Below, piece after piece: positions 48,001 through 63,000 of a stretch of 64,000 bases of DNA (its first letter is position 1; each line of letters begins with the position of its first letter). Origin of the DNA: Escherichia coli. GTDB lineage: Bacteria > Pseudomonadota > Gammaproteobacteria > Enterobacterales > Enterobacteriaceae. The stretch lies in the NCBI RefSeq assembly GCF_003991155.1, contig NZ_CP031293.1; one strand, 5' to 3'. The position numbers are program-made.

Positions 48001-51000
48001 CAATACGTTGCGTTAAAAACGGCTGTTCAGTCTCTGATGCCACGGGGTATTGCAACAATCATCCGGTGATGGACGGGAGAAATATCGACTCTTCCGTTAG
48101 TTTTTACAGACTGATAAAGTTTTGCCAGCTGAATCTTTATACGGAATGCTCTTCAGTATGCATATACGAATTGACTATCTGGCGGATAAAAACTGCTTTA
48201 CAGAACTGAATGAATCTCCACGCCTTCGCCGGCAGTGGCAGGATGTTCTGGAGGAGTGCCGGCAGACAGAGGCCGGGCCAGAAGAACGGCTGCGTATTGC
48301 TCTGCTGAATGTGGATTACGTCACCAGTTTTGAACTGCCTTTTCGCTTGTTGCTTACTCGTACACCACAACTGATTGCCGCGCTGCGTGAAGAATGGGAC
48401 ATCAGCCAGAAAAATGTGGTGTTCAACGATAAACGCTTTGGCTGCGTGTACAACCTGAAGGCCAGCCTTTCGGGTGGGCCGGATACATTCCGGTATCATC
48501 TGTCTCACCGTATTCGGCGGGTGGTTGCGAATGAAAACACATCATCGCCATACCAACTGATTGCCCGGGAAGTGAAAGCGCCCCGTCAACGGCTGAAGTA
48601 TGCGCTGGAGACAGGATTGCAGGTGAGCGCACTGGACGGCCTGTTCTGGTTCGGCAGCCAGCGCATTGCGGCAGATATCCTGAGGCTGAGAAAGTACGGG
48701 ATGCGGATTGCGACGGCTTCTGTGGACGTGTATGACAACATAACCGGAACAACTCGTCATATCCCTGTATATTACTCCTGACGCAAAATAGTCTGTGGGG
48801 GCCGGAGCATGACCGGTAACCGGAACAGGGTTTTGCCCTCGTCACAGCCAAAAATACGTCCTTTATCACATTTCTTCGATTTTTCCTGATATTTTACCGG
48901 GTTACTGTTCAAAAATGCTTCTCTTCTGATGTAAATTTCTTTACTGACACTTTTTGACATGAATTTACACTGGCATCACACAGGCCAGAATACGGGGAGA
49001 ACATGCAGCACCGGCAGAAAAACATTCTGACGAAAACGTCCCTTTTATCCCGTGCGTTGTCTGTCCCCTGTTGTGATATGTTCCGGCGCGGCTCTCCGTG
49101 GATATGCTATCTCTCCCTCTCCGTTTTTTCTGGTTGTTTCATCCCCGCATTTTCGTCTCCGGCAGCCATGCTGTCTCCGGGTGACCGCAGTGCAATTCAG
49201 CAGCAACAGCAGCAGTTGCTGGATGAAAACCAGCGTCAGCGTGATGCGCTGGAGCGCAGTGCGCCGCTGACCATCACGCCGTCTCCGGAAACGTCTGCCG
49301 GTACTGAAGGTCCCTGCTTTACGGTGTCAAGCATTGTTGTCAGTGGGGCCACCCGACTGACGTCTGCAGAAACCGACAGACTGGTGGCACCGTGGGTGAA
49401 TCAGTGTCTGAATATCACGGGGCTGACCGCGGTCACGGATGCCGTGACGGACGGCTATATACGCCGGGGATATATCACCAGCCGGGCCTTTCTGACAGAG
49501 CAGGACCTTTCAGGGGGCGTACTGCACATAACGGTCATGGAAGGCAGGCTGCAGCAAATCCGGGCGGAAGGCGCTGACCTTCCTGCCCGCACCCTGAAGA
49601 TGGTTTTCCCGGGAATGGAGGGGAAGGTTCTGAACCTGCGGGATATTGAGCAGGGGATGGAGCAGATTAATCGTCTGCGTACGGAGCCGGTACAGATTGA
49701 AATATCGCCCGGTGACCGTGAGGGATGGTCGGTGGTGACACTGACGGCATTGCCGGAATGGCCTGTCACAGGGAGCGTGGGCATCGACAACAGCGGGCAG
49801 AAGAATACCGGTACGGGGCAGTTAAATGGTGTCCTTTCCTTTAATAATCCTCTGGGGCTGGCTGACAACTGGTTTGTCAGCGGGGGACGGAGCAGTGACT
49901 TTTCGGTGTCACATGATGCGAGGAATTTTGCCGCCGGTGTCAGTCTGCCGTATGGCTATACCCTGGTGGATTACACGTATTCATGGAGTGACTACCTCAG
50001 CACCATTGATAACCGGGGCTGGCGGTGGCGTTCCACGGGAGACCTGCAGACTCACCGGCTGGGACTGTCGCATGTCCTGTTCCGTAACGGGGACATGAAG
50101 ACAGCACTGACCGGAGGTCTGCAGCACCGCATTATTCACAATTATCTGGATGATGTTCTGCTTCAGGGCAGCAGCCGTAAACTCACTTCATTTTCTGTCG
50201 GGCTGAATCACACACACAAGTTTCTGGGTGGTGTCGGAACACTGAATCCGGTATTCACACGGGGGATGCCCTGGTTCGGCGCAGAAAGCGACCACGGGAA
50301 AAGGGGAGACCTGCCCGTAAATCAGTTCCGGAAATGGTCGGTGAGTGCCAGTTTTCAGCGCCCCGTCACGGACAGGGTGTGGTGGCTGACCAGCGCTTAT
50401 GCCCAGTGGTCACCGGACCGTCTTCATGGTGTGGAACAACTGAGCCTCGGGGGTGAGAGTTCAGTGCGTGGCTTTAAGGAGCAGTATATCTCCGGTAATA
50501 ACGGCGGTTATCTGCGGAATGAGCTGTCCTGGTCTCTGTTCTCCCTGCCATATGTGGGGACAGTCCGTGCAGTGACTGCACTGGACGGCGGCTGGCTGCA
50601 CTCTGACAGAGATGACCCGTACTCGTCCGGCACGCTGTGGGGTGCTGCTGCCGGGCTCAGCACCACCAGTGGTCATGTTTCCGGTTCGTTCACTGCCGGA
50701 CTGCCTCTGGTTTACCCGGACTGGCTTGCCCCTGACCATCTCACGGTTTACTGGCGCGTTGCCGTCGCGTTTTAAGGGATTATTACCATGCATCAGCCTC
50801 CCGTTCGCTTCACTTACCGCCTGCTGAGTTACCTTATCAGTACGATTATCGCCGGGCAGCCGTTGTTACCGGCTGTGGGGGCCGTCATCACCCCACAAAA
50901 CGGGGCTGGAATGGATAAAGCGGCAAATGGTGTGCCGGTCGTGAACATTGCCACGCCGAACGGGGCCGGGATTTCGCATAACCGGTTTACGGATTACAAC

Positions 51001-60000: not shown

Positions 60001-63000
60001 GCATTGCTTGAAAAAGATATTGCCAGTGATAAGGAGGTTATTGCTGCCTGTAGTAATGGTAATGCGAGTAGTTCAGCGTGTGCCAGCGCAAGACTGAAAG
60101 TTATTGCGTCGAAAGAAGGGTACGAAGATGGCCCTTATAACTCGAAATACAGCCAGCAATACGCTGATGCGTATGGTCAGATAGTCAATCTCCTCGATAT
60201 CACCAGTGTTGATGCACAGAATCAGCAGCAGGTGAAAAACGCCATGATTAACTATTTCATGGTCACCAAAGGGGTGGATCGTCAGACCGCAGAAAGCTAC
60301 ACCGAAACAACGCAGGGCTTGGAGATCATTGCGGCTTCGGTAACGCCTCTTATAGGGCAAGCTGCATCAAATAAATTAAGCTACCTTGGTATTGGGAAAA
60401 AGATATCCTTTGATGGTGATTTTTATACTGTAGATGGAATGAAATTCAGCAAAAGTTATTATGAGAAATTATGGGAGCAAGGCAGACCTGCGCCATTCGT
60501 GCAAGCAAGAGAAGTGTTGAATAGCAATCCAAAAATTGAGCCGGATCCTAGAGGCGCACCTGGCTACTTAAGATATGAAGGTGCAGGTCTTGAAATGATC
60601 TATAACCCGAAAACGGGACAAGTTGGTCATATTCAACCAGTCAAGGTTAAATAAAAAGAGGAAGTAAATGGATATTTGGCCTGAATTTCAACGAGATCTT
60701 GAGATGTATCGAGATGTTGTTTTATCAATAAAACGTAACCTTCGGTTGTATGAGGAGTGTATTGAATCGTTAGTTCATCAGATCGGAAGCACCAATTTTG
60801 ATAATGCGCAGCCTCTATTTGATGACCTCTTTCGTATGCAATCTGAACTTGCTACTATGTTATACAAATATGAATATAAGCCAGGAAAAAGGATACAAGA
60901 TTTAATATATCATCTGGACAGGGATGATTTTTACTCAAGAAAATATTGGCATAAAAAATTCAGTGATGGATTGGCATGGCCTGAATAATAGAAGTAGAAA
61001 TCCCGCCCTCAGTTAGCGCTGAGGAATCCCTAGTAATGGGCGGGTAAAAAAGACAGGCATAGAGTTTTGTGATCTACTGATTTGTGCAACCAATTCAATG
61101 AGATCGCTTCTATGCCTGCTCGACAAGTATGTCAGAATTTTTTCCACGATGCGTTAGCACCGTTTCACAAATACCGACAAAATGCTTTGCTGGATGCCAC
61201 CATCGCTCTCATCAATGGCGCATCACTGACGTTGACCAGCATCGGGCGTTATTTACCCGGCTTGGCTCGGGTCAAAAATAAAATCAAACGCGTTGACCGA
61301 CTGCTCGGTAATGAATCTCTTCACCGCGATATCCCACTGATTTTCAATAATATTATTGCCATGCTGACTAGCCAGCTATCTCTTTGTGTCATCGCCGTTG
61401 ACTGGAGTGGATATTCATCTCAGGAGCATCATGTGCTCCGCGCCAGCCTGCTCTGCGATGGATGCTCGCTTCCCCTGTTAAGCTGGGTAGTCCCGTCAGA
61501 AAAACAGCAGAACTCGCAGATACAAAAAAACTTCCCAGATGCCCTTGCCGAGGCTGTAAACCCTGTGGCCAGAGTCATAATAGTTACCGATGCGGGTGTT
61601 CTTACCCCCTTATTTCCAGACAGGGGCTGTATCTTAAGTTAACATTACCCGCTGACGTCGATATTCTCGCGGAGAGCGATAACCCAACGCACTATGCGGA
61701 TGGTTTTCATTGTAATGCTCGATCGCCACTGCAAGGTTTATATTGCCTGTTCATCGATCATCAATCTCGTGAACTGTGAGACGAAACAGCGTACACTGTT
61801 TGAACGTATCTACTTTTCCCAATACTGGGCGAAGGGAGATGTTATTGCGAAGCGCGCTCCAATTAGTCAGTGGGAACCTTATTCGGAAGAGTCACTGCTT
61901 GTCATCATCGTCACCAGCGTCTGTCGTATTAAAGTCGCGATGCTAAAACCTGAACCTCCCAGAGATCCCCATATCCCGCTAATGGGGGATTTTAACTAAA
62001 ACTTAGCGCTATCGCTGCATATTGTAACTATCCCGCATCACGTATGCATAAATTATGACGCCATACGGGGAACAAATACACAGAGGAAGAAAAAGATTAG
62101 ATTGGTTTTAAGGGATTTTTTATCATAAATGGCGCTGCTAAAATTATGAGATTATCGAAGATAAAATTCTTGATCATACATAAAAGGCCTCCTGAATTAA
62201 ATCAAGAGGCGTATAGTTTTTATATTACTGATGTATGTTTAATGATCTCACTGATTTTCACTTTCCTGTCCTGCGATCTTGAAAGAGTGGCAGCATCAGC
62301 AGTAGCAATCGCCGACATGGCCGCCTCACCATTGAGAAGGTCAATATAATCTTCTTCAGGTTTTGCACCACTGAGGATATTATGGAGGAATAACGTCTCC
62401 TTTCTTATTAAACTGGCAAGCCATAATGGTGTTTTTTTTCCAGGATGACCATATGCTATAGCGCCATCCATTTCTGAGGTCATATTGCCTTTCCGACGAT
62501 CATCATCTTCTTCTTGTGTTTCATGGACCAAAAAATGCTTTGTCTGACCGCCAATCCTAAGTGACCCTGCTGTTTCTTGCATATCAATTTTAATAGAGCC
62601 TTTAGTTCCATTGATGATGACATAATGTTCTGGCCAGTTAAATGCACTCCCCCACTCTAAGGTTGCTAGTTTTCCTGACGGGAATTCCAAGGTCATAAAT
62701 AACATATCATCTTCATTGCCAAACCCTAGACCAGAATGAGCTAAATTTCCACCAATCATAGTAACCGTCTCTGGTATTTCTCCAAGTAAATGCTGAACAC
62801 AATCTAACTCATGTATATGATGATATAGATGTCCACCAGATTGTTCTTTCATCTTTTTCCAGGAAAGTCTCTCCTGTTTGTTTTCCCAGCCATTTCTCTT
62901 GGTATGACATGATAATATTTCGCCGATAACACCTTCTTTAATTAACTTCCGTGCATATTGAACTCCATTGAAAAAATTCATAATATGCCCAGCCATAAAG

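Follow-up and report, generated by a model that had tools for sequence, protein, structure and literature searches.

The cdiBAI locus

The window analysed here is a stretch of 64,000 nucleotides from Escherichia coli (contig NZ_CP031293.1), and the three genes of the locus, with their domains, lie on its + strand. An ORF check of the window shows three unbroken open reading frames without internal stops: cdiB (49003-50775) for an outer-membrane transporter of the Omp85/TpsB type with 590 aa, cdiA (50788-60654) as a single unbroken frame for the effector of 3288 aa, and cdiI (60668-60988) for an immunity protein of 106 aa. The stop codon of cdiB is separated from the start of cdiA by 12 nt, and 13 nt lie between the cdiA stop and the cdiI start. 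This gene order on one strand with tight spacing is the layout of the E. coli-type contact-dependent inhibition (CDI) systems. A sequence-only reading had placed such a locus at 49003-60988; these limits are exact to the base and all three frames were found at the positions it gave. In the RefSeq annotation of genomes with 100% identity the same three genes are present, none of them labelled as a pseudogene. A 9.9-kb open frame encoding such domains cannot be of chance origin.

In CdiB, Pfam detects the domains POTRA_2 (aa 106-181, E = 1e-22) and POTRA_3 (aa 184-236, E = 1.5e-18) and the ShlB beta-barrel (aa 241-553, E = 2e-90). Two POTRA domains and a beta-barrel are what is expected of the Omp85/TpsB transporter of a CDI system, and the earlier assignment to the TpsB type is thus borne out. 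The transporter is WP_024187038.1 in genome Rb-3, shares 551 of its 590 residues with CdiB of strain 536 (the differences fall mostly within the first ~50 aa) and differs from the CdiB of the NC101 lineage at 12 aa.

Domain architecture of CdiA

The cdiA DNA is 100% identical to cdiA of Rb-3, whose product is WP_001531945.1. The protein carries a TPS secretion domain at aa 36-288 (50893-51651; Pfam PF05860, E = 1.2e-49), which is also recognised by the NCBIfam model TIGR01901 (60 bits, cut-off 29). The FHA-1 repeat region extends over about aa 289-1364 (51652-54879); there the many Fil_haemagg matches are weak, and TIGR01731 scores above its cut-off. We infer that these repeats form an extracellular beta-helical filament. 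The FHA-2 repeat domain occupies about aa 2041-2651 (56908-58740; Pfam PF13332, Fil_haemagg_2, best E = 1.1e-44), so that TPS domain, FHA-1 and FHA-2 follow each other in the order expected of a CDI effector. A pretoxin-VENN domain is found at aa 2991-3040 (59758-59907; Pfam PF04829, E = 5e-20) with the VENN motif itself at aa 3034-3037 (59887-59898); directly after the domain Pfam reports DUF6862. As in other CDI systems the pretoxin-VENN domain marks the start of the variable C-terminal region: compared with CdiA of strain 536, the two 100-aa bins preceding VENN have 81% and 69% identity, and what follows has at most 42%. The TpsA exoprotein of 3288 aa with TPS domain and VENN motif, as the sequence-only reading had described it, was recovered in every part, and its claim of intactness stands, as the ORF check finds no internal stop in cdiA and Pfam finds the TPS domain retained.

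CdiA of strain 536 (WP_000554175.1), the class II reference binding OmpC/OmpF (Beck et al. 2016, PMC5056734; Ruhe et al. 2017, PMC5371414), shares gene order and architecture with the protein studied here and is 97-100% identical over residues 1201-2800. The two proteins differ by an 18-aa indel and by a mosaic block within FHA-1 at aa ~290-600. Over aa ~300-600 this block is only ~40% identical (38-43% for aa 301-600), whereas its flanks are 87-100% identical. We considered the divergent block as an oddity of this locus and rejected the idea: the variant is present in 336 complete genomes and is therefore a common allele.

The receptor-binding region

Between FHA-1 and FHA-2 lies a stretch (aa 1365-1688, 54880-55851) which is identical in 972 of 972 nt to the genome of strain 536 (NC_008253.1) and in 324 of 324 aa to Ala1345-Trp1668 of CdiA-EC536. 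Both primers published for the UPEC domain swap match the two ends of this region. The swap itself, in which Ala1345-Trp1668 was moved into CdiA-EC93, retargeted the recipient protein to OmpC/OmpF (PMC5371414), and OmpC/OmpF binding of the identical region was established with chimeras and adhesion assays (PMC5371414, PMC5056734). The adjoining covarying region (aa 1689-2330, 55852-57777) takes in the Tyr/Pro-enriched secretion-arrest segment together with the first part of FHA-2. It corresponds to Pro1669-Gly2310 of CdiA-EC536, with limits as given in PMC5371414, and shares 97-100% identity with that strain; the role of the Tyr/Pro-enriched segment in secretion arrest has been described (PMC9424206).

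The sequence-only reading had left the receptor-binding class open. We aligned the region with representatives of classes I, II and III and obtained class II. With EC93 as the class I and STEC_O31 as the class III reference, the identity is about 30%, an approximate value since both references were machine-read from Fig. S1 of PMC5371414, reading errors included; the class II control read from the same figure gave 98%, against 100% with the genome sequence. Ruhe et al. 2017 (PMC5371414) enter WP_001531945.1 as class II in their Table S2, where its row appears to stand in the block '5 - NC101 (tRNase)'. Because of the complete identity to the swapped region of CdiA-EC536 and this table entry, we regard the assignment of CdiA to class II, with a predicted specificity for OmpC/OmpF, as settled.

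That the region instead belongs to class I (BamA), class III (Tsx) or the lipidated, CdiC-dependent class IV is highly improbable. No evidence in favour of any of these classes was found, and the full identity to the class II reference contrasts with the roughly 30% to the references of classes I and III. For class IV a cdiC acyltransferase gene and a divergent FHA-1 are expected. The 12 nt between cdiB and cdiA leave no room for cdiC and contain no ORF, and FHA-1 resembles that of strain 536 and not the distant class IV type of PMC5371414.

The C-terminal toxin region and its immunity protein

From VENN onwards CdiA comprises 255 aa, and this whole CdiA-CT is identical (255/255) to WP_000554167.1 of the NC101 lineage. 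Its first part (59887-60375) is a cytoplasm-entry domain homologous to chain A of PDB 6VEK (E = 1.6e-73 over CT residues 1-174). The PtsG-dependent family, to which the entry domains of EC3006, NC101 and STEC_O31 belong, is recognised by Tyr5 and the disulfide pair Cys55-Cys65, and all three residues are kept; family and PtsG dependence are described in PMC9424206 and PMC7690452. From its sequence, the N-terminal half of the CT is thus predicted to belong to the cytoplasm-entry family that depends on PtsG. PDB 6VEK is the CdiA-CT of EC3006 (PMC9424206), with which Tyr5 after VENN and the Cys55-Cys65 pair are shared. The toxin domain of EC3006 is a different one, as it cleaves tRNA-Ile and does not need EF-Tu (PMC9086364). 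Entry domains of the PtsG family have only ~70% pairwise identity, and the variation is concentrated in helix alpha-9 (PMC9424206).

Pfam leaves the final ~90 aa of CdiA without a match, and NCBIfam has no family for the toxin domain or for CdiI; since models were lacking there, both were identified by sequence search of the PDB. The toxin domain (60376-60654, CT residues 164-255) is a tRNase of the BECR fold and of the NC101 type, identical in 92 of 92 residues to chain A of PDB 5I4Q and 5I4R, with the catalytic residues Arg200 and His248 of the CT in place. The NC101 toxin needs EF-Tu and EF-Ts and removes the 3' end from tRNAs whose discriminator is a guanine (PMC5737660; see also PMC9086364 for the mechanism). 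The small frame immediately downstream of cdiA, previously proposed to encode the immunity protein, agrees in 106 of 106 residues with the crystallised CdiI (chain B of PDB 5I4Q, also 5I4R) and with WP_000355946.1 of JA0257 from the NC101 lineage. Asp84 and Arg85, which contact the toxin, are present. By sequence the cognate immunity gene thus directly follows its toxin, as is usual for CDI. The neutralisation of the toxin by CdiI has been reported, and so has contact-dependent inhibition by the identical CT/CdiI pair, in competition experiments run in a laboratory strain with cosmid constructs (PMC5737660).

A TPS domain, haemagglutinin repeats and a transporter of the ShlB family are also common to two-partner-secretion adhesins and haemolysins of the FHA/ShlA kind, and some close copies in RefSeq are named 'hemagglutinin repeat-containing protein'. 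It is scarcely conceivable, though, that the locus is such a generic system without an inter-bacterial toxin. The pretoxin-VENN domain and the VENN motif are present, the C-terminal 255 aa are those of a CDI tRNase known from both biochemistry and structure, and its immunity protein is encoded by the gene that follows; as far as sequence can tell, these features refute the adhesin reading.

Among the closest known systems is cdiBAI of NC101 (Michalska et al. 2017, PMC5737660), with the same receptor-binding class and the same FHA-1 variant. Outside the CT, CdiA of the NC101 lineage (3289 aa) differs from the protein described here (3288 aa) at 60 aa, among them two indels of 2 aa and 1 aa; a functional effect of these differences is probably nil. 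The C-terminal region of strain 536, in contrast, is an Ntox28-type tRNase which is activated by CysK and paired with a different CdiI; its entry is reportedly FtsH-dependent.

Genomic setting

A tRNA scan of the window found none, and we therefore located the attachment site of the island in a collinear genome. Rb-3 is collinear with the window, with one mismatch over 30003-64000. In Rb-3 the locus has the kps/gsp region on one side and tRNA-Phe (pheV) with an integrase on the other; pheV and the integrase lie about 33 kb past the position of the window end. The earlier claim that the locus is island cargo is supported by this placement, and the assignment to the pheV island holds as far as the position can be predicted from the collinear genome.

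The NC101 locus has the same downstream context, with an IS4 remnant, nanY/nanX, orphan VENN fragments and pgt. In Rb-3 the orphan VENN fragments lie downstream, beyond the window; one of them is frameshifted, and they have no matches in PDB or NCBIfam. Upstream of cdiB, homology to the NC101 lineage stops 79 bp before the start codon, and the upstream neighbours differ. Strain 536 carries its locus at another chromosomal position with other neighbouring genes.

Just upstream of cdiB (48158-48781) we found a gene of the ECs1377 family with a weak winged-helix signal. It is conserved beside cdiB in this genome and also in strain 536, where the locus sits elsewhere in the chromosome. That it is a dedicated regulator of cdiBAI expression is nevertheless very unlikely. 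A CDI-specific link was rejected, as the gene occurs in 2317 genomes, mostly without an adjoining cdiB, and the NC101 lineage lacks it upstream of cdiB. In view of this distribution we treat it as island backbone.

Expression

Many cdi loci of E. coli, with the exception of EC93, are poorly expressed in laboratory culture. It is possible, though less probable than not, that the present locus is likewise intact but silent or nearly so, and that it would confer just CdiI immunity against neighbours with the same toxin, or toxin-independent adhesion, and no active killing. The weak in vitro expression generally seen outside EC93 would fit, and a promoter scan upstream of cdiB revealed no convincing sigma-70 promoter, with three weak 9-of-12 matches against 1.9 expected in shuffled sequence. 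Likewise, matches in a terminator scan around the locus were no commoner than in shuffled sequence. Upstream of ~48923 the sequence is not the same here, in the NC101 lineage and in strain 536, and regulation may accordingly vary between strains. Against a silent locus speaks that hundreds of genomes carry all three genes undisrupted and with 98-100% identity, a pattern in favour of ongoing selection on the complete system. Silence would moreover be a question of regulation and not another identity of the locus.

Suggested mode of action

Taken together, the locus is almost certainly a complete E. coli-type cdiBAI system with a class II CdiA and an NC101-type toxin on the pheV pathogenicity island. 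We found no sequence evidence against this reading, and the transporter, exoprotein, immunity gene and island setting of the earlier cdiBAI proposal each passed their test.

We suggest that inhibition would proceed in the following steps, which were described for modules identical or nearly identical to these; the delivery model is that of PMC9424206. CdiB would export the N-terminal half of CdiA, whose FHA-1 repeats would build a filament on the cell surface, tipped by the receptor-binding region. Export would then stall at the Tyr/Pro-rich segment, so that FHA-2, the pretoxin domain and the toxin are held in the periplasm. Once the class II region has bound OmpC/OmpF heterotrimers of a neighbouring cell, the arrest could be released and export resume, whereupon FHA-2 would take the C-terminal region through the outer membrane of the target. 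After being cut off at VENN, this region might cross the inner membrane with its N-terminal entry domain via PtsG and the proton gradient. In the cytoplasm the BECR tRNase domain would bind domain 2 of EF-Tu, with EF-Ts and GTP also being used, and remove the 3' end of guanine-discriminator tRNAs such as tRNA-Glu and tRNA-Asp, and translation would stop. Sibling cells would be protected by CdiI, which is expected to block the active site.

This system is already described and there is nothing new in the locus. Its importance beyond annotation is small, and it makes no open question testable. The annotation that can be predicted reads in full: OmpC/OmpF receptor, PtsG-dependent entry, activation by EF-Tu/EF-Ts, guanine-discriminator tRNAs as target and an NC101-type CdiI. 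Neighbours with compatible OmpC alleles and without a matching cdiI are predicted to be inhibitable. The locus is another case of the way in which island-borne CDI systems of ExPEC are known to exchange their receptor-binding, entry and toxin domains as modules. The 12-kb locus occurs with 100% identity in several complete E. coli genomes. A survey of 5426 complete E. coli genomes found the class II region in 413 and the whole locus, at a coverage of at least 80%, in 305; 72 carry the NC101-type CT/cdiI module.

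Integrity and architecture of the cdiBAI locus

The contact-dependent inhibition (CDI) locus consists of three open reading frames on the plus strand, namely cdiB (49003-50775, 590 aa), cdiA (50788-60654, 3288 aa) and cdiI (60668-60988, 106 aa), with gaps of 12 nt between cdiB and cdiA and 13 nt between cdiA and cdiI. No internal stop codons were found in any of them. CdiB has the domains of a TpsB-type transporter, that is, POTRA_2, POTRA_3 and a ShlB/FhaC/HecB barrel. CdiA starts with a TPS domain (aa 36-288, supported also by NCBIfam TIGR01901), followed by numerous weak matches to FHA-1 repeats and by strong matches to FHA-2 repeats. 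The PT-VENN domain comprises aa 2991-3040, with DUF6862 directly after it, and the VENN motif starts at aa 3034. In the 1-kb bin with the cdiA 3′ end and cdiI, the GC content is only about 40%, down from about 55%, which fits a horizontally exchanged toxin/immunity cassette.

The sequence-only reading had claimed an intact locus composed of a TpsB-type transporter, a TpsA exoprotein with TPS domain and VENN motif, and a small downstream immunity gene. This observation is confirmed in each part, and the interpretation as a CDI system is supported. Gene integrity, architecture and identity to characterised modules are established.

Receptor-binding class

The same reading had left the receptor-binding class unassigned. 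Ruhe et al. 2017 (PMC5371414) traced receptor specificity to a stretch of about 300 residues that FHA-1 and FHA-2 enclose. In that work, CdiA-EC93 bound OmpC/OmpF once the region was swapped for Ala1345-Trp1668 of CdiA-EC536. Both primers used to amplify the segment match the window (54877-54898 and 55832-55870), and over the 972 nt between them (54880-55851) the window agrees with the strain 536 chromosome at every position. At the protein level, CdiA residues 1365-1688 are identical to CdiA-EC536 1345-1668 at 324 of 324 positions. The identity to class I (EC93, BamA) and to class III (STEC_O31, Tsx) is in each case about 30%, an approximate value since these references were machine-read from Fig. 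S1 of the same paper. Class IV, which depends on CdiC, was rejected: no cdiC gene is present, and FHA-1 resembles that of strain 536. By its identity over this region, CdiA is therefore a class II protein, with OmpC/OmpF as the predicted receptor. Table S2 of PMC5371414 ("Predicted class II CdiA proteins") lists its accession, WP_001531945.1, apparently under the heading "5 - NC101 (tRNase)".

Toxin, immunity protein and proposed delivery

Over its last 92 residues CdiA is identical (92/92) to chain A, and CdiI is identical (106/106) to chain B, of PDB 5I4Q/5I4R, which are the complexes of CdiA-CT, CdiI and EF-Tu from E. coli NC101 (PMC5737660). For the NC101 lineage we used strain JA0257, whose CdiA WP_000554167.1 has the accession given for NC101 in Table S2. 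Its entire CdiA-CT (the 255 aa counted from VENN) and CdiI are identical to those of the window, whereas 60 positions differ elsewhere in CdiA and 12 in CdiB. The catalytic residues Arg200 and His248 (CT numbering) are present, as are the CdiI contact residues Asp84 and Arg85. The NC101 toxin is a BECR-fold protein that binds EF-Tu at domain 2 and requires EF-Tu, EF-Ts and GTP; it cuts 5′ of a guanine discriminator nucleotide, and tRNA-Glu thereby loses four 3′ nucleotides (PMC5737660, PMC9086364).

At its N-terminal end, over ~174 residues, the CT matches that of CdiA from E. coli 3006 (PDB 6VEK, E = 1.6e-73). The entry domain common to 3006, NC101 and STEC_O31 relies on PtsG as well as the proton gradient, must be cut precisely after VENN and gains stability from a Cys55-Cys65 disulfide (PMC9424206, PMC7690452). 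Tyr5, Cys55 and Cys65 are all present.

The most likely course of events follows the delivery model of PMC9424206. The N-terminal half of CdiA would be exported by CdiB, with FHA-1 as the filament and the receptor-binding region at its tip. Export would stall at the Tyr/Pro-enriched segment, so that the C-terminal half is held in the periplasm. Binding to OmpC/OmpF would then allow export to resume, and FHA-2 would mediate passage across the target outer membrane. After release of the CT at VENN, the entry domain would take the tRNase across the inner membrane via PtsG, and the toxin with EF-Tu and EF-Ts would truncate a subset of tRNAs. Sibling cells would be protected by CdiI. We infer these functional steps, as well as the presumed expression and activity of the locus in its host, from the cited work on identical or near-identical modules.

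Comparison with strain 536 and the NC101 lineage

CdiA residues 1201-2800 are 97-100% identical to strain 536, whereas its CT and CdiI are unrelated. In addition, an FHA-1 block (aa ~290-600, window 51655-52590) is only 38-43% identical between flanks of 87-100%, which points to a recombination mosaic within the filament region. The NC101 lineage has the window-type variant as well, and 336 complete genomes carry it, which makes it a common allele. The comparison with strain 536 shows the known modular mosaic.

In strain 536 the locus is located at another chromosomal position with other neighbouring genes. The NC101-lineage strain agrees with this locus in its downstream context, but not in its upstream neighbours; homology with it sets in just 79 bp before the cdiB start codon (window 48923-49003). 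In the same interval, strain 536 contains some 600 additional nt, an annotated ORF among them. The cdiB promoter region is thus a recombination junction, and cdiB regulation may differ between strains. A promoter scan upstream of cdiB gave only weak matches, no more than in shuffled sequence.

The signal-peptide region of CdiB (aa 1-52, window 49003-49160) is mostly unlike that of strain 536, whereas the remainder is nearly identical. Both N-termini begin with MQHRQ; the second in-frame Met (aa 26) could be the true start.

Occurrence

The 11,986-bp locus is 100% identical in at least seven complete E. coli chromosomes, among them Rb-3, MS 200-1, FDAARGOS_1284, 85.0412 and TUM13754. Of 5426 complete genomes, 305 have at least 80% of it, 413 contain the class II receptor-binding region (≥95% identity) and 72 the complete NC101-type CT/cdiI module. 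In Rb-3 the genes are annotated as ShlB/FhaC/HecB family protein (WP_024187038.1), "cdiA: contact-dependent inhibition effector tRNA nuclease" (WP_001531945.1) and hypothetical protein (WP_000355946.1). The system has been described before, even at the level of the protein accession; solved structures and biochemistry are published for the identical toxin and immunity protein, and a domain swap for the identical receptor-binding region.

In some genomes, among them that of an ST131 strain (NZ_CP103562.1, 4623824-4624117), all that is left of the class II region is its first 294 nt. As this piece lies in a truncated TPS-domain gene abutting a gene for an alpha-hydroxy-acid oxidising enzyme, it is a cdiA deletion remnant. 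Plasmid hits of the CT query number 321 altogether. On many large E. coli plasmids (for example NZ_CP024816.1, 124126-124378), a 255-nt piece of the cdiA pre-VENN/VENN region, 98% identical, lies beside repA and is annotated "VENN motif pre-toxin domain-containing protein".

Island context

The window is collinear with the complete genome of Rb-3, with one mismatch over 30003-64000 and 77 over 1-50000; of the 77, the first 20 are all confined to the initial ~350 nt, on the gsp side. The order in Rb-3 is gspK-L-M, a group 2 kps capsule cluster, a CP4-like block (CbtA/YeeU toxin-antitoxin pair, antirestriction gene, Ag43), sugar-utilisation genes, an ECs1377-family gene and cdiBAI, then IS4 and integrase remnants, nanY/nanX, orphan VENN fragments, pgtPCBA and pap with papG-III. 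The region ends with a tyrosine integrase adjoining tRNA-Phe (pheV) and yqgA. A tRNA scan of the 64-kb window found none; pheV and the integrase lie about 33 kb past its end in Rb-3. Since this gene order is closed by pheV and the integrase, cdiBAI is island cargo, as had been proposed, and the island is a pheV island.

The ECs1377-family gene (48158-48781, plus strand, 207 aa; NCBIfam NF052300, 318 bits) lies 221 nt upstream of cdiB and its product gives a weak winged-HTH signal. A ~93%-identical gene is located upstream of strain 536 cdiB, at another chromosomal site. However, it occurs in 2317 genomes, mostly without an adjacent cdiB, and is absent upstream of NC101-lineage cdiB. It is probably island backbone rather than a CDI component.

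Mobile-element debris follows cdiI immediately (60989-62200). It comprises a piece of an IS4-family transposase (61112-61615; the in-frame ORF spans 61082-61642), part of an integrase core on the minus strand (about 61634-61738), a short ORF that carries the annotation "surface-adhesin E family" (61715-61999) and ythA with a frameshift. Then come nanY (62220-63338) and nanX (from 63350), both on the minus strand. About 5 kb beyond cdiI, with the IS remnants and nanY/nanX between, are orphan cdiA fragments (35924-39110 of the Rb-3 locus L001, ~1.9 kb past the window end; also L005, 19040-22226) with small ORFs downstream. One fragment (332 aa) is pre-VENN and lacks VENN; the other is frameshifted and keeps the motif. 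Their DNA is about 64-70% identical to the 3′ part of the window cdiA, and they have no matches in PDB or NCBIfam. This orphan array appears to have been split off from cdiBAI by insertion.

Two further stretches lie upstream. Beside the gsp genes, the GC content is very low (29-35%) over ~7 kb (2000-9000). The stretch matches the serotype-specific part of the group 2 kps cluster, where ABC transporter genes, galE and genes for a 760-aa hypothetical protein and an O-acetyltransferase are found. By the Rb-3 annotation, the CP4-like module occupies 17600-31000 and contains, besides the antirestriction gene, the CbtA/YeeU pair (19480-20312), a frameshifted 2.5-kb ORF (23554-26071) and Ag43 (26192-29314), these three on the minus strand.
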